Assembly: GCF_000181795.1 (NCBI RefSeq)
Contig: NW_003526945.1
Coordinates: forward strand, 235,123 to 255,122
Direction of reading: 5' to 3'
DNA: 20,000 bases
Source of the DNA: Trichinella spiralis
Taxonomy: Eukaryota
In this document: one piece after another, positions 5,354 to 20,000 of the stretch
Numbering within the stretch: position 1 is the stretch's first letter
Layout of the letters: each line of letters starts with the position of its first letter
Made by a program: the position numbers and the translations under genes
The notes under the pieces: generated by a model
Database searches by the model: none
What the model saw: the letters and a program-made list of their open reading frames with translations, nothing else
What the model was told of the DNA's origin: nothing

Positions 5354-6296
5354 ATGGCTAGAGAAGGAAGTGATATATATACGGCGGAATGCATCATGAA
5401 TGAACGAAAGAGAAAGGTATGTATGTATATTTGTTGTGCATTAATTAGGAAGTTTTATTTGTAGTTAAAGTAATTTTTATTGTCTTCAGTTAATAGAAAG
5501 TTGAAGAGGTTGATGTCACTGTTAACATTGTTAAAGTAATTTTTAAAGACATCAATATCTTTTTTTTCGAATTATGCTTTGCTTATTATGATGTTTTTAA
5601 ATGTACAGTTTTACTTAAAATTAAAGTATGTTGTGACCACCTTAGATTATCAGTTGCTTCTATCTATGTAATAAAAAAAGCAGTGAATTTTAAGGGAAAA
5701 AAAGAGTATTTGGTGCGATGGGAAGGCTATTCTGAAAAGTGAGTTCACTTTCATAATTATGGTTTTTCCAGTTGAAATTAAATTAAAATTTAAGATATGA
5801 CACCTGGGAACCGGCAAGCCACATATTAGGATATGAATTACTGCAAGAATATAATGAGGCGAAAAAGAATGGTTTTAAAAATGCGTTTGAATATAATAAG
5901 CACAAGGAAAATCAGTTGGGCAAATCAGCTGCAAAGAAAAGTAAGAAGGAATCGAATGCACCGCAAACGAAAAATGCAGGAGAACAAGTTCGTCGAAAGG
6001 ACAAAAGTGGCGGTGGGAAACAGAAAAGTGAATTAAATGCTTCTGGTGATGACAAGAAAGAAGACGCTTCGGTTGTAAATCAAGAAGCAGAAGGCAAAGA
6101 AGAATCTGAAGCGGCAAAAAAGTTTTGTGAGTGGATTAAACAACTGCCATTGTCAATGAATTCAGGCCCATCACCTGGCTTATACAGTCGAAGTAATTTG
6201 ACAATCGGTGAATTTGAAGAGAAACTGGAACGATTTCTGCAGTTGCTCCGAGACCGAAAAAAGACCTCGTTATTGCATAAACCGAATAAGAATTAG
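5354..6296 (+). CDS. Chromodomain protein of the Polycomb/CBX type, 202 aa. Exons 5354-5416, 5695-5738, 5795-6296.
   Basis: MAREGSDIYTAECIMNERKRK|GKKEYLVRWEGYSEK|YDTWEPASHILGYELLQEYNEAKK..., followed by a K/E-rich linker and a short helical-looking C-terminus. The aromatic cage residues Y9, W30 and Y33 are present. Introns 5417-5694 (GTATGT..AAG, phase 0) and 5739-5794 (GTGAGT..AAG, phase 2) join in frame with ORF 5916-6296. Confidence 0.92.
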
Positions 6297-7296: not shown

Positions 7297-10200
7297 TGCT
7301 CTGCGCATTCTCTACGTTGTTAGTTAACTGCTGTGAATTGTCGCGCACGATTATATCTGCAATCTTCTTTTCTAGTTTCAAAAACTGTTCTTTTAAATAT
7401 ACATAAAGAATAATGTAACTTTTTATATCAACGGTTAAACAAGACCAATGTTACATTTCCTTCGTACTCTTGCAAATTCTGCATTTACATTTTCTATTGT
7501 CCTCAACATCACTTGTTTTATATTTACACTGAACATGATACGTTCACTATTTTTGTTCAGTTTTATTACAATGCAAAGAATAATACAAAAGCCCTCCTGA
7601 CTTCCTGTGTCAAGCGTCAATCATCTTCCACAGATTGTTGATTTCTGTTTGTTCATATGCATGAACAGGATGAACAAGATGAACCTCAACAATGAGAGTT
7701 CAGCGGAGGTGAGTGAGCTTAAAATAGATTTCATTTTTCAATTTTTCACTTTCATCAGTTTTGTTTAACATTTACATTGAGAATGTGTTGTTTATAAATT
7801 TGTTCTTTGAGATCTATTTTTCATCTCGATATATAGTTATTTCTTTCTTCTTAGTATTTATATTATTACTTTTTGTATTTTATTTGCAGGCTTCCAATTT
7901 TTTATTTTTATTTATTAAAGTTATTTTTCTCATCAATTTATTTTTTTAAATTGTTTTTCTACTTTAAATTTGTTTATTGTTTGTTCTGTTTTTGAAATTT
8001 GAAGTCTGATAAAACCATCATCTCAACAAAGAAATAACAAACGTGAAATCTGATTTGTGGACTTCCAAACGTTATAAAAACTCACTGGTATATATGTCAG
8101 TTGACGTGAGTGAACAATTTATTTTTATACATGTTGAACCTCTATATTTTTTCTCTCTAATGCATTACTTTATGTTTTATTAACTTTGTTTTCTTTTCTT
8201 CTAATTTCAAATTTTATTTTTCAAATATACTATATTTCTCAATGCTAAATCCATTTTTCTTGTTCCATTTCTAAAATGTGTTTCATAATTTTCTCCAAAA
8301 TTGCAAAAATGCATGGACTATAGAATTGGTTGTTTTTGCCAAAATCGGCGAAAAAGGTTTTTCCAATATTCATATATATTTTTTTGGTTGAAAAATTGGA
8401 TGATTCCGTTGAAAAAACTTATGAAATCTTACCATAATCCCATTTTGTTAACGTTCCTTTTTAATTCCTTTCTGCTTCGACGTCTTTAAAATACTATGTA
8501 AGTTTTCAATTATTGCGTTTATCTCAAAAAATACGCACTTACCAGGGGTCCCGATACATTCAAAGTAGAAAGCAAATAATTTTCAAAAGATATAAATCAA
8601 TTGCTTTCATTTTTGGATTAAAAATTTTTCTCCAAAATTGCAAAATTTCATGGACTATACACTTGGTTGTTTCTGCAAAAATCATCGAAAAGGGTTTTCT
8701 GAATATTTGGACTTTTTTTCATTTTTGTAATTTTTCATTGAGGAAAGTAAGTATTCACGGGAGTTTAACCTTAAACTGCCCAGTAGTTTTTGAATAAATG
8801 GTTTCTAAAGTTTCTTTTTTCTAAACTTCTGCCCATTTTAACACATAGGGATGTCGCCAATCAGCAACTGTTCTCCAACCGCCGGAATGACTGACAATTT
8901 CTGCAAATGAAACATTTTAGACATCAAATCTATTAGATTTATCCACATGTATATTTTTTTGATTGAATTAAATTCAATTTTAGAGCTGTTAAATAATCAT
9001 TAATTGCTGCGAATCAAAACGAAAGTGTTTTAAGTGTTTACCTTGACAAAAAGTAAACATTTCCTTGCACCCAATCCCGTTTACCATCTTTGTCATTGAT
9101 TAAACTCCTAATATATCCAACATGAGTGGCTATTTGAATTTACTTTTGCTTACTAACAACGACGCAATAACGATTTGCATAATCAGTATAATATGTGGTC
9201 GCCCAGAGTTGAAATTCATTACAATTGATATGAAATTAAATAAATTCAAAATTTATGTCAAATTATTGAACTCATGCATGGTATTTGTTCGAATCTTTAG
9301 AGAAATTTACCAATATGGACAGTGGAAATTAATCTGCGCATATCAGAAACTACGGCGTATTGCAAAATAGTTTTGGGTTAAGAGCAAGCAGTTTTGTGCC
9401 AGTTGAAGGTATGTAAATTGGGAATAACCCGCAATCGATGATTTTTTGAGAAATTTCATAAAGTTGCCAGTTTGAGGATTTGGAATTTTCAGAAAAAAAA
9501 GACTGGCATATTGCACGAAAACAACATTCTAATCTGCCAATTTTGGATAGTACTTATATCTAATTTGGAATCAATTAAAAATTTCTGTCAACAGCGGTTT
9601 ATAAATTTGAAAGTTTTTGTAACATTAATGAAAATCAAGAACAATTCTTGTAAAAAAACATTTATTTTTTTGGGTAAAAAAATTGATGGTTCCGTTCAAA
9701 AAATCATTGAAACCATACCGTATTCGCATTTTGTTAACATTCCTTTTTCATTCCTTATTATTTCAACACATTTAAAACCATATACATGCCATAGTTTTTT
9801 CCGTATATCTCAACAAATACGCCATCACTAGGGGTCCATGTGCATTTATAGTAAATAGCAAATAATTTTCAAAAGGTATAAATCAATTGTCTTAATTTTA
9901 GATTAAAAAAGATTTCTCGAAAATTGCAAAATTTCACGGATTACAGACTTGTTTGTTTTTGCAGAAAAAAGCGGAAAGGGTTTTCATAATATTTGGATTT
10001 TTTTTATTTTTATCACTTTTTGATGATGAAAGATATTGTTTTGGAGACTTTAACATTGAACATTCCAGTAGCTGTGCAATAAATGGTTTCAAAAGTTGAA
10101 GTACTTCCTATTTTAATACATACGATAGTCGCCCATTAGTAAGTGTTTTTCAACGGAACCCTAGACTTCCAGTTTCTGCACATTATACATTTCTGGCATG

Positions 10201-10658
10201 AAATTTGTTCGATTTTTACTAATATATATTTTTTAATATTAATTTAGTTGAATTTCTGAAATTACTGCTGTTAAATAATCATTAGTTTGCTGCCATTCAA
10301 AACGAAAGTGTTTTAAGTGTTTACCTTGACAAAAAGTAAACATTTCCTTGCACCCAATCCCGTTTACCATCTTTGTCATTGATTAAACTCCTAATATATC
10401 CAACATGAGTGGCTATTTGAATTTACTTTTGCTTACTAACAACGACGCAATAACGATTTGCATAATCAGTATAATATGTGGTCGTACACAGTTGAAATTC
10501 ATTACAATTGATATGAAATTAAATAAATTCAAAATTTATGTCAAATTATTGAACTCATGCATGGTATTTGTTCGAATCTTTAGAGAAATCTACCAATATG
10601 TACAGTGGAAATTAATCTGCGCATATCAAACTACGGCGTATTGCCAAATAGCTCTGGG

Positions 10659-10671
10659 NNNNNNNNNNNNN
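10659..10671. other. Assembly gap (13 N) inside the array
   Basis: N run. The flanks duplicate the same ~40 bp (gcatatca...) with read-end-type errors. Confidence 0.99.
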
Positions 10672-13600
10672 GCATATCAGAAATTTACCGGCGTATTGCA
10701 AAAAATAGTTTTGGTTTAAGAAGCAAGCAGTTTTTGTGCCCAGTTGAAGGTATGTAAATTTGGGAATAACCCCCAAATCGATGATTTTTTGAGAAAATTT
10801 CATAAAGTCGCCAGTTTGAGGATTTGGAATTTTCAGAAAAAAAAGACTGGCATATTGCACGAAAATAACATTCTAATCTGCCAATTTTGGATAGTACTTA
10901 TATCTAATTTGGAATCAATTAAAAATTTCTGTCAACAGCGGTTTATAAATTTGAAAGTTTTTGTAACATTAATGAAAATCAAGAACAATTCTTGTAAAAA
11001 AACATTTATTTTTTTGGGTAAAAAAAATTGATGGGTGCGTTGAAAAAATTAATGAAACCATACCGTATTCCCATTTTGTTAACATTCCTTTTTCATTCCT
11101 TATTATTTCGTCGCATTTAAAACACTATTCATGTGTTAGTTTTTTGCGTATATCTCAATAAATACCCCATCACTAGGGATCCATGTCCATTTAAAGTAGA
11201 CAGCAAATAATTTTAAAAAGGTATAAATCAATTGCTTTAATTTCTGGATTTAAAAATGTTTCTCGAAAATTGCAAAATTTCATGGACTATAGACTTGTTT
11301 GTTTTTGCGAAAATCAGAGAAAAACGTTTTCTCAATATTTGGACTTTGTTTTTATTTTCGTATTTTTTTATTGATGAAAATTAGTATTTAAGAGACTTTA
11401 ACTTTGAAATTTCCTGTACTTGTGGAATAAATGGTTTCAAAAGTTGAATTCCTTCCCATGTTAATACATACGATAGTCGCCCATTAGTAACTGTTTTTCA
11501 ACGGAACCGGAGACTGCAAGTTCCTGCACATGATACATTTTTGGCATGAAATCTGTTCGATTTTCACTAATATATGTTTCTCAAGATCAATTTAGTTGAA
11601 TTTCTGAAATTACTGCTGTTAAATTATCATTAATTTGCTGCCATTCAAAACGAAAGTGTTTTAAGTGTTTACCTTGACAAAAAGTAAACATTTCATTGCA
11701 TCCAATCCCGTTTACCATCTTTGTCATTGATTAAACTCCTAATATATCCAACATGAGTGGCTATTTGAATTTACTTTTGCTTACTAACAACGACGCAATA
11801 ACGATTTGCATAATCAGTATAATATGTGGTCGCCCAGAGTTGAAATTCATTACAATTGCTATGAAATTAAATAAATTCAAAATTTATGTCAAATTATTGA
11901 ACTCATGCATGGTATTTATTCGAATCTTTAGAGAAATCTACCAGTATGTACAGTGGAAATTAGTCTGAGCATATCAGAAACTACGGCGTATTGCAAAATA
12001 GATTTATGTCAAAAGCAAGCAGTTTTGTGCCAATTGAAGGTATGCAAATTTGGAATAACCCGCAATCGATGATTTTTTGAGAAATTTCATAAACTTGCCG
12101 GTTTGTGGATTTGGAATTTTTAGAAAAAAAAGACTGGCATATTGCACGAAAATAACATTCTAATCTGCTAATTTTGGATAGTACTTATATCTAATTGGCA
12201 ATCAATTAAAAATTTCTTTCAACAACGGTTTATAATTTTGAAAGTTTTTGTAACATTAATGAAAGTCAAGAACAATTCTTGTAAAAAAACATTTATTTTT
12301 TTGGGTAAAAAAAATTGATGGGTGCGTTGAAAAAATTAATGAAACCATACCGTATTCCCATTTTGTTAACATTCCTTTTTCATTCCTTATTATTTCGTCG
12401 CATTTAAAACACTATTCATGTGTTAGTTTTTTGCGTATATCTCAATAAATACCCCATCACTAGGGATCCATGTCCATTTAAAGTAGACAGCAAATAATTT
12501 TAAAAAGATATAAATCAATTGCTTTAATTTCTGGATTTAAAAATGTTTCGCGAAAATTGCAAAATTTCATGGACTATAGACTTGTTTGTTTTTGCGAAAA
12601 TCAGAGAAAAACGTTTTCTCAATATTTGGACTTTGTTTTTATTTTCGGAATTTTTTATTGATGAAAATTAGTATTTAAGAGACTTTAACTTTGAAATTTC
12701 CTGTACTTGTGGAATAAATGGTTTCAAAAGTTGAATTCCTTCCTATGTTAATACATACGATAGTCGCCCATTAGTAACTGTTTTTCAACGGAACCGGAGA
12801 CTGCAAGTTTCTGCACATGATACATTTTTGGCATGAAATCTGTTCGATTTTCACTAATATATGTTTTTTAAGATCAATTTAGTTGAATTTCTGAAATTAC
12901 TGCTGTTAAATTATCATTAATTTGCTGCCATTCAAAACGAAAGTGTTTTAAGTGTTTACCTTGACAAAAAGTAAACATTTCATTGCATCCAATCCCGTTT
13001 ACCATCTTTGTCATTGATTAAACTCCTAATATATCCAACATGAGTGGCTATTTGAATTTACTTTTGCTTACTAACAACGACGCAATAACGATTTGCGTAA
13101 TCAGTATAATATGTGGTCGCCCAGAGTTGAAATTCATTACAATTGCTATGAAATTAAATAAATTCAAAATTTATGTCAAATTATTGAACTCATGCATGGT
13201 ATTTATTCGAATCTTTAGAGAAATTTACCAATATGGACAGTGGAAATTAATCTGCGCATATCAGAAACTACGGCGTATTGCAAAATAGTTCTGGGTTAAG
13301 AGCAAGCTGTTTTGTGCCAGTTGAAGGTATGCAAATTTGGAATAACCCGCAATCGATGATTTTTTGAGAAATTTCATAAACTTGCCGGTTTGTGGATTTG
13401 GAATTTTTAGAAAAAAAAGACTGGCATATTGCACGAAAATAACATTCTAATCTGCTAATTTTGGATAGTACTTATATCTAATTGGCAATCAATTAAAAAT
13501 TTCTGTCAACAACGGTTTATAATTTTGAAAGTTTTTGTAACATTAATGAAAGTCAAGAACAATTCTTGTAAAAAAACATTTATTTTTTTGGGTAAAAAAA

Positions 13601-13849
13601 ATTGATGGGTGCGTTGAAAAAATTAATGAAACCATACCGTATTCCCATTTTGTTAACATTCCTTTTCATTCCCTATATTTACGTCGCATTAAAACACTAT
13701 CCATGTGTAGATTTTTTGCGTATAATCTCCATAAATACCCCATCACTAAGGATCCATGTCCAATTAAGGTAGAAAAGCTACTATTCTAAAAAGATTAAAT
13801 CATGCTTTAATTCTGAATAAATGTTTCTCGAAAATGCAAAATTCCATGG

Positions 13850-13859
13850 NNNNNNNNNN
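13850..13859. other. Assembly gap (10 N) inside the array
   Basis: N run with low-quality-looking flanks. About 350 bp of the unit is missing here. Confidence 0.99.
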
Positions 13860-16800
13860 TTGCTCCATACAAAATGAAAGGTGTGCAAGTGCGTACCTTG
13901 ACAAAAAGTAAGCATTCAGGCATCCACTACCAGTTTACCATATAGTCATTGACTAATCTCCTCATATATCCAACATGAGTGGCTATATGAACTTACTTTT
14001 GTTTACTAACATCGACGCAATATCGATTTGCATAATCAGTATAATATGTGGTCGCGCAGAGTTGAAATTCATTACAATGGCTATGAAAGTAAGTATATTC
14101 AAAATTTATGTCAAATTATTGAAATCATGCATGGTATTTATTCGAATCTTTAGAGAAATCAACCAATATGTACAGTAGAAATTATTATGAGCATATCAGA
14201 AACTACGGCGTATTGCAAAATAGTTCTGGGTTAAGAGCAAGCTGTTTTGTGCCAGTTGAAGGTATGTAAATTGGGAATAACCCGCAATCGATGATTTTTT
14301 GAGAAATTTCATAAAATTTCCGGTTTGAGGATTTGGAATTTTTAAAAAAAAAGACTGGCATATTGCACGAAAATAACATTCTAATCTGCCAATTTTGGAT
14401 AGTGCTTATACCTAATTTGGAATCAATTAAAAATTTCTGTCAACAGCGGTTTATAAATTTGAAAGTTTTTGTAACATTAATGAAAATCAAGAACAATTCT
14501 TGTAAAAACACATTTATTTTTTTGGGTAAAAAAATTGATGGTTGCGTTCAAAAAATTAATGAAACCGTACCATTTTTTATTTTGTAAACCTTTTTTTCAT
14601 TCTTTACTGTTTCGACGTCTTTTATATACTATGCAAGTTTTAATTTTTTGCGTTTTTCTCTAGAAATACGGAATCCCCAGGATTCCAGTTGCATTTGAAG
14701 TTGATAAATAGTAGTTTTCAGTAAATGTTAATCAATTGCCTGAATTTTAGATTTCTTGTAAATTGCAAAATTTCATTCACTAAAGACTTGGTTGTTTTCC
14801 GAAAATCAGCGAAAAATGTTTTTTCAAAATTTGGATTCTTTTTTTCTTTTTATCATTTTTTATTGATGAAAAATAGAATTTTAGATATTCTAACTTTGAA
14901 TTCTCTCGTTCGAAAGCATTGTATGTGCTTGCTTTCCTAAAATTAAGCATTTCATTGCTTCCAATCCAATTTACCATCTTTGTAATTGCCTCACCTCATT
15001 ATATATCCCGCATGTGTATCTATTTGAATTCATTTTTGCCAAGTAACAATGATGAAGTGGTGATTTACATAATTATTATAATATATAGGCACCCAGACAT
15101 GAAATTCATTACTGCTGCTATTAAATTGTTATTGCGAATCTCTAATTATACACTTTCCGTTTCACTTCTATCCCATAATTAAATTTCTGTTTGCAGAGTG
15201 TGGTTCGGGAGACACAGGTTTCACAAAACGAATTAAGACATTCTATCATACATCATCCTCAATATCAGAAAATACGTACCATTTCAAGCACCTTCAGATC
15301 TTTATGAGAATGGCATTGACGTAAAAATCAGGAAATCAAAGGAAGCTGCTGAGAGCGACATTTCCTCCAGCAATATTATAAAAAATCGACTGTCTGACCC
15401 TGTGTGTGAGATGACAGTAGGGGTGGTGGATGGATGACGGATTTAACAGCTTAAATGGAGGTAAGGAAGGTGGAGAAGAGGCTTTTAGTGTTAGTGTAAG
15501 ATTTACATGGGAATGAAACAGGCAAGCAAGAGAAATGGACCGCGTCATAATGACAGCCATTAACGCGTTGACACTGAAATTTTCGCATGGGAAAGTAGGT
15601 ATATTTTTTGGAAAAATAGATACAAGATAGGGAAGCCGTTTAAAGGAAGTGCATTTGTGGCGGCTTCTGGAAAATTGAATCTGTTCATCAAGTTCAGCTT
15701 TTTGTTGGGTTGACGCGGGAATATGAATCTTGACAGAAAAGCATTAGACTTTTGGCTTTACTAACACAAGAACAAAAGGCAAAAATAACAATCGGCATTC
15801 AAATGTATGTGGAATGCATGCATCATTAATCAAGTAATATCAGCAGTATGAAAATCTGCAGATCTGAAGTATGAAAATCTGCAGGTATTAATGTAGCTGA
15901 TGATAGCCGACTAGGCTGCACAACATCTTCAATGTTTCACAACTCTTATTTCACATTAATGACGTAATTGCAGCCGACGGTTTTATCTTGCATGAGCACA
16001 GAACACAATGTATTAAAAAAATATGGGAGATAATATGCGGACATGAAAATGCATCTTTTAATATGAAAATCGAAACTAAAATCACTAAATGTGAATTAAT
16101 AATTGAAAATACAGTAATATACATTATTGAAATTGCCAAATTAATGATAATAAGGTTAATGAGTAATACATGAATGAGAGAAAAGCATAGGTAGTTTCAA
16201 TAGTTCTTATTTTATCAGAGTGCTGTTCGATAAACGATGGCGGTGAGTAACTAAATTGTAAATGAGCGATGCTTCATTCAGGTGAATACTGAAATACTTC
16301 AATACTGAATCTTTTTTTGCTGATGTTTTGCTATGCATGCATGTATGTTTAAGTATTTAAAAAACTATCAATTTGACCGCGTGTAAAACTTGAAATAAAT
16401 ACTTTTAAATCAGAATTCTCAATTACATTCAGATCAACGTTGAAAGATTTGAACAAATCCATATGTCATTTTGTTATTTAGTGTTATCATCTAGATTCAA
16501 ATGAAGAAGACGATAGAATTTTGAATTTACACAACTTTATCTGAACACTAAACAGGTCGAATATAACAAAGCGGATAGTGTTATATGTTATGCAGTTCAG
16601 AAAAATAGTGTTTTCATACGCACATCGTTTTCAATTTAATTTTATTTTCAGTTTATATTGTTTTCTAGATTTTACACCATGAAGACACAAGATAAATCAA
16701 AATTTTTACATAGTTAATTACGCTTGGCATAGAGCGCAACCAGTGTGCTCAATCATCGTTTATTTTTTGTTGACATTATGTTGTAATTCATATTTGAATA

Positions 16801-17333: not shown

Positions 17334-18070
17334 NNNNNNNNNNNNNNNNNNNNNNNNNNNNNNNNNNNNNNNNNNNNNNNNNNNNNNNNNNNNNNNNNNN
17401 NNNNNNNNNNNNNNNNNNNNNNNNNNNNNNNNNNNNNNNNNNNNNNNNNNNNNNNNNNNNNNNNNNNNNNNNNNNNNNNNNNNNNNNNNNNNNNNNNNNN
17501 NNNNNNNNNNNNNNNNNNNNNNNNNNNNNNNNNNNNNNNNNNNNNNNNNNNNNNNNNNNNNNNNNNNNNNNNNNNNNNNNNNNNNNNNNNNNNNNNNNNN
17601 NNNNNNNNNNNNNNNNNNNNNNNNNNNNNNNNNNNNNNNNNNNNNNNNNNNNNNNNNNNNNNNNNNNNNNNNNNNNNNNNNNNNNNNNNNNNNNNNNNNN
17701 NNNNNNNNNNNNNNNNNNNNNNNNNNNNNNNNNNNNNNNNNNNNNNNNNNNNNNNNNNNNNNNNNNNNNNNNNNNNNNNNNNNNNNNNNNNNNNNNNNNN
17801 NNNNNNNNNNNNNNNNNNNNNNNNNNNNNNNNNNNNNNNNNNNNNNNNNNNNNNNNNNNNNNNNNNNNNNNNNNNNNNNNNNNNNNNNNNNNNNNNNNNN
17901 NNNNNNNNNNNNNNNNNNNNNNNNNNNNNNNNNNNNNNNNNNNNNNNNNNNNNNNNNNNNNNNNNNNNNNNNNNNNNNNNNNNNNNNNNNNNNNNNNNNN
18001 NNNNNNNNNNNNNNNNNNNNNNNNNNNNNNNNNNNNNNNNNNNNNNNNNNNNNNNNNNNNNNNNNNNNNN
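17334..18070. other. Assembly gap (737 N)
   Basis: N run. Confidence 0.99.
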
Positions 18071-18104
18071 AGTCCGATATTTCAAAGCTCACCTCTCCCT
18101 CTCC

Positions 18105-19933
18105 CGGGTGCGGTACCAGAGGCCTGCCGCCTGCTCGGATCCCAGCAATGGGATCTCAAGCAAGGTTTTTTTTTCAGGCCCGACCGCCCCCCGCGCCGCC
18201 CCCCGCCCTCCTGCCCGTTAACGGGGACTTTCCCTCGGCGGAGTCTCCTAGTCCCGTGCTGGCCAGAGACCGGTTTTAAAGAGATGACCCTGTCCATTTG
18301 TGTGGTAATGGACGTTGTTTGAAATCTTGTGCAATGGGATTTCAACACCTGTGTGAATTCGTAAGACGTATCTGTCCTAGAGGCAGTTATGCAAATTCGC
18401 AATTGACGTAGTGCCGAGACTCTGTTTCGGTGCCAATCTAGTGGTGATCGTTACTCCCCCAAGAGGAACGGTAAGCGTCGCTATGCGTTTGTGTTATTGT
18501 CTCGCTGGCTCTGACACTTGGCCAATGATTGACATTAGATTTGCCGTCACACCTTTAACTAGTTCATTTGGCGTTGCACCTTTCATCAGTTTAGGCATCA
18601 AACATTTGAAATTAATCTCCTTCGAGAGTTTCCCCTTATAATCATGCTAAATAGTTTAAATTTGCTAACGTTTTATACATTAATTTATTCATTTAGGAAC
18701 TTAAATGATATATAAAATATAATGTTCATTCATCTAATAATTGGGCAAATTCAGTTTTTGTTTACATTACACTGTTTTAAACTAAAAAAGTTTACCAGTT
18801 TTTCATTTACATTTCATCATATAGAAGATTTTAATTATTCATTAATCTTATACTGATAATAATATATTTTTAGTTTAAAGCAGTTTTCTACTTTAAAAAA
18901 TGTAATGTCACAGTAGATTTCTACTTTAAAACAGTGTAATGTAAACAGTTAAAAGGGATGTAATATAGTAAACATTAAATTAGCATAATTTTATTTAATA
19001 ATTATTAGTGAATTAGCTATTGTTTGAATATAAATTTTTTACGTATTAAAAATGTTAATCGGGGTCTCCTTTAATTAGGTAATGGGGAAAGAAAACTTGG
19101 TATAAATGAAATAAACGATTAGCTTAGCCAAGGTGCAACGAGATTAATCTTTTTATAAATAGGAAGTAATTTTCTATAAATAGAATGTTATTAATCCGTA
19201 ACATGTAGGAAAACAATGTATTAAATATGAGATTAATTTTAATATGCTAATTAGAAAGTTTAAAATGCAACGTAAATGCTTCACTGAGTATTTTAATTTT
19301 TAATTAGGTTAAATAACGTCATTCGTAACAACATATTTTAGCAGTAAGAGTTTTTTAATAAATGATTAACATACAATGTAAACACAAAAGTGGGTCATAA
19401 AATTTTCTAATTAGGTATAATAACGTCACTCGTAACTACATATTTTAGCAGGGTTTTTAATAGTTAATTAGAATGTTTTAAATGGAATGCAAAAAACAGC
19501 AACTTACAGTACTCAGTTTTATTTGAAAAGATAAGTAGGCATAATACATTAAATCAATAATGATGAGTTGTAAATCATACGGTAAGTATGCAAACATGAG
19601 TTGGTTCTGCAGGACAGTACATTAATATTGAGTATCAGGTGTGACGGCAATTTGATGTGCATGAGGCGGCAAGGCTTAGTAGGCGAGACGATTCACATTT
19701 GCCTGGCAACGCACGCCATCTGGTGCGGAAGCTACGTCTTCGGCGGATCAGAATGGCCATCTGGTCCGTCGAGGGTGGATCAGATGGATCCACCCATGGT
19801 CATCTCGGCCAAAATCGTGAGGCCAGCACGTGGGCTAGGAGGCGATGATGCCTTGGGGGTCCCCGGGGCAGGAGGGCGGGGGGCGGCGCGGGGGCGGTCG
19901 GGCTGACCGAAAGGCAGGCCTCCACCGCAACCG
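18105..19933 (+). ncRNA. Putative large structured RNA or fold-back element of unknown family (~1.83 kb or longer)
   Basis: Nested inverted complementarity, for example 18178-18216/19866-19903 (38 bp, one bulge), 18245-18264/19821-19841, 18541-18554/19637-19650 (14 bp perfect) and 18759-18781/18925-18947 (23 bp perfect). G-U pairs are biased to the + strand, and a GCAA-capped hairpin lies at 18137-18156. The fold-back itself is directly visible. Transcription and function are inferred. Confidence 0.6.
19301..19451. repeat. 44-bp direct repeat pair inside the fold-back element
   Basis: 19301-19344 TAATTAGGTTAAATAACGTCATTCGTAACAACATATTTTAGCAG versus 19408-19451 TAATTAGGTATAATAACGTCACTCGTAACTACATATTTTAGCAG, 40/44 identical. 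Confidence 0.85.
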
Positions 19934-20000
19934 AAAACTTTTTTTTAAAAAAATTCACAAAAAAAAGCAACCTTCCCCCCCGCTGAATCGACGAAAACGC

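Follow-up and report, generated by a model that had tools for sequence, protein, structure and literature searches.

A dispersed non-coding Trichinella repeat whose plus strand keeps a very large nested fold in its arms

A fold-back of about 1.8 kb lies at the right end of the window, the 20,000-nucleotide stretch of Trichinella spiralis DNA analysed here, and is one copy of a dispersed, protein-free Trichinella repeat whose plus strand keeps a 1.8-kb nested fold in its arms. The repeat, with a very large plus-strand fold conserved in its arms, is real and apparently undescribed: our literature search, which lay outside repeat databases and most of the older Trichinella repeat papers (published in subscription journals), returned no description of the element. 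At a probability of roughly 45%, we read it as a non-autonomous retroelement working in the manner of LARD or TRIM elements, with the fold as its packaging signal; membership of either class is not claimed.

Extent, coding capacity and copies of the repeat

The window is AT-rich and intron-rich, and the contig piece that carries the fold-back starts right after an assembly gap and runs to the window end, leaving both ends of the element outside readable sequence (Table 1). Contigs of public sequencing runs extend the view slightly, with one reaching 88 letters beyond position 20000 and a divergent variant carrying a loose end of at least 200 letters before position 18080.

Table 1. Features of the repeat copy and its immediate surroundings (window coordinates)
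Feature	Position	Strand	Basis
Assembly gap of 737 N, hiding the left end of the element	17334..18070	.	Sequence
Visible part of one dispersed non-coding Trichinella repeat copy, extending leftward into the gap and rightward beyond the window end	18071..20000	+	62 of 62 gene models map here (E < 1e-8); contigs overrun both ends
14-nt purine run followed by TG, possible polypurine tract	18092..18105	-	Longest run of purines found on the two strands
Nested fold, 5' arm; side hairpins at 18129-18166, 18292-18401, 18413-18431 and 18447-18472	18105..18600	+	Ensemble helices, substitution test
G-C clamp helix of about 38 bp, 5' strand (partner 19866-19903)	18178..18216	+	Duplex of -103 kcal/mol; 97% complementary over 39 columns
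Hairpin with compensatory pair 18415/18429, C-G here and U-A in other species	18413..18431	+	Both changes in 5 of 5 gene models checked
AT-rich interior, 22-25% GC, faster-changing	18600..19595	.	Composition; 30 of 40 displayed read variants here
Near-perfect inverted repeat in the interior	18759-18788/18918-18947	.	Alignment
Direct duplication in the interior, 106-nt offset	19295-19368/19401-19470	.	Alignment
Nested fold, 3' arm; side hairpins at 19740-19772 and 19773-19795	19595..19933	+	Ensemble, substitution test
G-C clamp helix of about 38 bp, 3' strand	19866..19903	+	Duplex energy; alignment to 18178..18216

The initial annotation had seen no credible open reading frame in the region, and the protein searches bear this out. 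Two frames of about 100 amino acids match only unnamed or mislabelled Trichinella gene models, grouped in 12 and 7 clusters of 'hypothetical proteins', and 14 of the matched models scanned against Pfam gave no hits. With cluster members included, the matches comprise 62 spurious proteins from nine encapsulated taxa (T. spiralis, T6, T8, T9, T. murrelli, T. britovi, T. nativa, T. nelsoni and T. patagoniensis), which fall within the arms, in several reading frames and on either strand. Public Trichinella protein entries contain at least 63 such spurious translations. Some carry misleading names: the T. spiralis entries P0026 ('PE_PGRS family protein'), P0027 ('putative autotransporter'), P0029 ('Helicase ARIP4') and P0031 ('autotransporter') are translations of the non-coding repeat.

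The 62 models sit on 27 scaffolds of distinct length, each of at least 50 kb. Nine of these scaffolds belong to Trichinella T6, while the five from T. spiralis come from several assemblies and may overlap. This spread over 27 scaffolds in nine taxa indicates a dispersed repeat family rather than a single gene, a property that the initial annotation had overlooked and that makes a single-copy scaffold RNA unlikely. Within the limited reach of the searches, none of 63 models came from a non-encapsulated species. The unmatched tails of the gene models mostly differ from one another; judging from one model each, copies also seem to occur as a direct tandem pair and as an inverted pair. The exception among the tails is a 24-residue peptide with purine-rich codons that follows the 3' arm in one T6 and one T. 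britovi model (P0011 and P0066) and may derive from the part of the element that lies beyond the window's right end. Compared with the window's right end by best-case back-translation, this peptide scored 15, a value equalled by 70 of 200 shuffles, and a protein search with the frame that runs off the right end matched one T. nativa model, which did not reach past the window.

The copy in the window is closest to T. spiralis models (98% for P0024). At one residue, all 10 T. spiralis and all 3 T. patagoniensis models have L and all 23 models from T6, T9, T. murrelli and T. britovi have V, while other sites are polymorphic across species; such a mixture of lineage-fixed and shared differences is expected from the recent spread of a few master copies or from gene conversion. 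Parts of the stretch also occur in 20 of the 24 public runs listed, under three organisms. Four runs were compared with the stretch, and the two deep DNA runs held thousands of variant contigs; the run contigs differ from it at 169 places, 40 of which were displayed. Run X16, one of six guessed to be RNA, covers all 30 bins with contigs that carry no strand, end or level information. Two of the four runs (X3 and X16) contain a divergent subfamily, with 22 differences and 9 gaps in about 180 letters and long loose ends at 18080 and 19749. This subfamily keeps 18080-18132, 18334-18595 and 19575-19749 and differs across 18133-18333 and after 19749.

No known RNA family was recognized, in agreement with the earlier claim that the region has no rRNA, SRP, RNase P/MRP or snRNA core. 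Rfam searches returned three matches window-wide at E ≤ 1, and in the fold-back region the covariance models for SRP, RNase P/MRP, 7SK, snRNA and ribozymes gave none at this threshold, at which a very large insertion could hide a core. Neither rRNA nor 5S was matched anywhere in the window by Rfam, ARAGORN found no tRNA there, and the element has no B box. Runs of five or more T number ten on the plus strand and six on the minus strand. A Pol III transcript or SINE was rejected as a candidate on the absence of a B box and a tRNA and on the ten plus-strand T runs. The hammerhead ribozyme, a mark of Penelope-like elements and retrozymes, gave no Rfam hit and one lone core heptamer on the minus strand, in a copy whose terminal parts lie outside view. 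CpG depletion does not set the element apart (observed/expected 0.88-0.95, versus 0.87 for the window). Pattern scans found no loci in metagenome contigs or viral contigs, and a second metagenome scan found six, all chance matches of 19-20 nt.

Several other features of the window were recorded. A tandem array at 8281-15127 comprises about five to six units of about 1.29 kb, with two small N gaps and no long open reading frame; its units are 85-98% alike in the middle and about 75% alike at the edges. A probable hAT transposon relic occupies 1270-2240. It matches part of the hAT dimerisation domain (E 0.014, below the cut-off) and has inverted ends that look similar by eye and an internal inverted repeat of 63-68 nt (1609-1676/1890-1957); a search for an 8-bp target duplication around this relic found none. 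Positions 159-673 hold the last two exons of a gene, which we take to resemble NAD(P)H-hydrate epimerase (YjeF N-terminal). A gene for a chromodomain protein has exons at 5690-6296; of these, the exon at 5796-6293 matched only Trichinella chromodomain proteins (4 of 4 hits), best at 93% to T. patagoniensis.

Fold and selected strand

All 19 helix pairs proposed in the initial annotation proved complementary, with duplex energies that are negative throughout (-3.4 to -103 kcal/mol). Its claim of a single nested fold held for 16 of the 19 helices, which have a mean pair probability above 0.5 in the plus-strand ensemble, but the remaining three (18395-18400/19743-19748, 18574-18588/19561-19573 and 18644-18650/18980-18986) lose to local alternatives. 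The side hairpins that were said to make the junctions multibranch are present in the ensemble, where most helices of the 5' arm exceed a probability of 0.8 and the two arms are for the most part above 0.9. Aligned to each other, the arms are complementary at 259 of 344 positions. The suggested outer extension, 18072-18088 with 19982-19992, does pair, but over only about 6 bp (p 0.76). Inside the 5' arm, the plus strand at 18166-18177 has a T run ending in CAG, which we take to resemble a nematode splice or trans-splice acceptor.

Folding energies set the region apart from shuffled sequence. The plus strand of 18104-19935 folds at -642 kcal/mol, compared with -461 (s.d. 13) for 14 global dinucleotide shuffles (z = -14) and -486 (s.d. 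7) for 14 shuffles within 150-nt blocks (z = -21); its minus strand folds at -583 kcal/mol. The energy gain of plus over minus is about 47 kcal/mol with G-U pairs and about 7 with G-U forbidden, when the strands become nearly equal (-539 versus -532). DNA parameters also favor the plus strand (-332 versus -307 kcal/mol). Across the region, segment 19738-19797 reaches z -6.6 on the plus strand, most of the signal in the first half of the interior comes from a single strand-symmetric inverted repeat (z -3.0 on plus, -5.8 on minus) and segment 19100-19600 of the interior has no folding excess of its own (z +0.2).

Substitutions between copies provided an indirect test of which strand is selected, with one compensatory pair, short of a full covariation analysis. 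Changes were deduced from amino-acid differences among the spurious gene models and accepted only where one explanation existed, giving 33 distinct sites and omitting 18 ambiguous ones. Twelve of these sites are unpaired or weakly paired and 21 fall at pairs with p > 0.8, where 11 changes turn a Watson-Crick pair into a plus-strand G-U pair, 2 turn G-U into Watson-Crick, 1 produces A-C, 6 produce other mismatches and 1 breaks a G-U pair. Transitions at Watson-Crick pairs thus gave plus-strand G-U in 11 of 12 cases, against 125 of 261 visible sites expected (48%; p = 0.002), and the sole A-C case is half of the C-G to U-A swap at 18415/18429. A T>G change at 19853, present in 24 models, closes a mismatch of the window copy. 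The six mismatches all arise by transversion, five of them as single observations, and a recurrent double change at 19686-19687 breaks two pairs with p = 1.0, unless matching partner changes are hidden in the 129 variants outside the displayed set. The 40 read variants that were displayed comprise 17 at unpaired positions, 9 that keep pairing and 14 that break a pair, 11 of the latter in the interior.

These patterns support the plus strand as the strand under selection and the GC-rich arms as a conserved plus-strand structure. Most pair-breaking read variants are in the interior, which appears to be a loosely constrained spacer whose pairings are not kept. The proposal of a single-stranded nucleic acid selected for structure is thereby upheld for the arms, through strand-specific G-U tolerance and the compensatory pair, but not for the AT-rich center.

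Candidate origins of the element

Among the options raised at the outset, a LARD-like element is the best fit, though unproven: the copies have no coding capacity, are dispersed and conserve RNA structure, in the arms only. Under this reading, Pol II would transcribe the plus strand from a promoter hidden in the gap, Pol III being excluded by the ten plus-strand T runs. The RNA would fold with its two ends clamped by G-C helices and its AT-rich middle as a loosely constrained spacer, and the fold would mark it for packaging or recognition by the Gag and reverse transcriptase of a helper, an autonomous retrotransposon for which an LTR, Penelope-like or DIRS-type element is a candidate. Every round through RNA would then spread copies and select for the fold. 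Such movement via an RNA copy that needs the fold would jointly explain the dispersal, the similarity within lineages, the lack of coding and the structure on one strand. LTR repeats reportedly make up 4.33 Mb in T. spiralis (PMC7846577).

In the visible sequence, which stops short of both ends, we saw no LTR, primer-binding site, target-site duplication or autonomous partner. A purine run followed by TG occurs on the minus strand only, with none on the plus strand inside the window. This run, next to the gap, is the only LTR-like signature and an equivocal one: translations across it differ in other copies, and it lies on the strand opposite the selected fold. On the plus strand, the gap and the sequence beyond position 20000 may hide a primer site and a purine tract; a stretch at 18101-18118, which we took to resemble a tRNA primer site, was dropped as a candidate. 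Also counting against the retroelement reading are the tandem and inverted arrangements, which simple insertion does not predict, and the pair-breaking changes (the six transversions, the one G-U break and the double change at 19686-19687).

Those same arrangements accord with the main rival, in which a large, structured non-coding RNA is encoded by a host gene whose many copies spread by duplication and were homogenized by gene conversion. Such a gene, representing a new class of RNA or a hairpin-RNA Dicer substrate that feeds endogenous siRNA, would explain the strand-specific structure signal equally well and would agree with arms more conserved than the interior. It is possible but on balance unlikely, given copies on many scaffolds in differing contexts, models confined to encapsulated species within the searches' limited reach, and plus-strand T runs incompatible with transcription by Pol III; it is also unusual for a large RNA gene to be both dispersed and multicopy. 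The Dicer variant gains from reports that T. spiralis uses Dicer-made RNAs of 23-25 nt, lacks piRNAs and silences transposons through Dicer products (PMC4323106), a setting in which Dicer would naturally act on a long RNA fold-back. A broader and rather unlikely idea is an abundant, intricately folded RNA of about 2 kb and of undescribed kind with many dispersed genes. This RNA would have been domesticated by the host or would spread itself by a mobilization route of its own, with a possible link to the upkeep of chromosome ends or to small-RNA silencing in a lineage that has lost telomerase as well as piRNAs. The telomerase RNA suggested in the initial annotation is itself a weak option, as the element is multicopy and contains no motif resembling a TTAGGC template, and Trichinellidae are reported to have neither TTAGGC repeats nor telomerase (PMC10844300).

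The remaining readings are less likely. The initial annotation held that the fold is not a decayed palindrome, and we agree, since decay would be strand-symmetric and the changes are asymmetric, with 11 G-U outcomes to 1 A-C where decay predicts about equal numbers. That ratio also makes a foldback or Mutator-type transposon with long decayed terminal inverted repeats, already disfavored, the most improbable account considered, even though inverted arms with the complementarity given above do flank an AT-rich interior; moreover, the arms are internal rather than at the element's ends, and bulges and side hairpins common to near-identical copies are not decay. A non-autonomous rolling-circle element of Helitron or Helentron type, whose displaced single strand would fold so that selection acts on single-stranded DNA and not RNA, would give both dispersal and one-strand asymmetry and accords with the internal duplications in the interior and the plus-strand advantage under DNA parameters. 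It remains improbable: G-T tolerance is weaker in DNA, and Helitron-type elements, which end in a 5' TC and a 3' hairpin-CTRR and make no target duplication, get by on short terminal signals and have no need of a multibranch fold of 1.8 kb. An rDNA transcribed spacer (5' or 3' ETS), or scattered orphan copies of one, is a shade more doubtful. Long GC-rich helices are typical of rDNA spacers, the arms are nearly uniform in a low-depth run and summed contig depth is very high in two DNA runs, a depth that is not a copy number and has no single-copy control. Against this option, which was also among those first raised, the window has no rRNA match and its gap is just 737 N, copies lie on nine different large scaffolds of one species (T6), an inverted pair is implied, and both universal Trichinella ITS1 primer sites given in PMC10734138 are absent as exact 12-letter matches.

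Known relatives and biological meaning

On published descriptions, the nearest animal-parasite precedent for a non-autonomous retroelement of this kind is ta-TRIM of taeniid tapeworms, a group described as lacking the canonical PIWI pathway, in which non-autonomous LTR elements have a non-coding interior proposed to hold a structured packaging signal (PMC4558846). Like the Trichinella repeat, ta-TRIM is described as non-coding, dispersed and lineage-restricted, with occasional tandem copies, in a parasite without a PIWI pathway (PMC4558846). The two differ, in a comparison by description only. In ta-TRIM, LTRs of 198 bp accompany a primer site and a purine tract, and the interior measures 590 bp (PMC4558846). 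In the Trichinella repeat the interior fold alone spans 1.8 kb and has an end-to-end G-C clamp, and the visible part showed no LTR, primer site or target duplication. Helenus, Ajax and Cassandra TRIMs are likewise described as animal non-autonomous retroelements that carry RNA-like sequence, but they have Pol III promoters (PMC10886601); the present element has no tRNA, 5S or B box and has T runs that would stop Pol III. Hairpin RNAs, the precursors of endo-siRNAs, are also reported as long one-strand fold-backs with imperfect helices (PMC3212509); unlike them, this element is multibranch, multicopy and dispersed. The 1.6-kb diagnostic repeat of T. spiralis, X06625, known here by description only, is likewise high-copy, of similar size and cross-reacting among species (PMC6432754).

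As a diagnostic marker, the repeat family described here may itself combine high copy number with the ability to tell lineages apart. Non-autonomous retroelements whose interior is structured have been described chiefly in plants and in a handful of animals. If the repeat is a retroelement, its end-clamped 1.8-kb fold would be an extreme case among them. The element would then offer a testable handle on how a helper recognizes its passenger and on how such an element persists in an animal that lacks piRNAs and depends on Dicer. Should the repeat prove to encode a host RNA, that RNA would represent a new large RNA class in a parasite of humans and livestock that also lacks telomerase.
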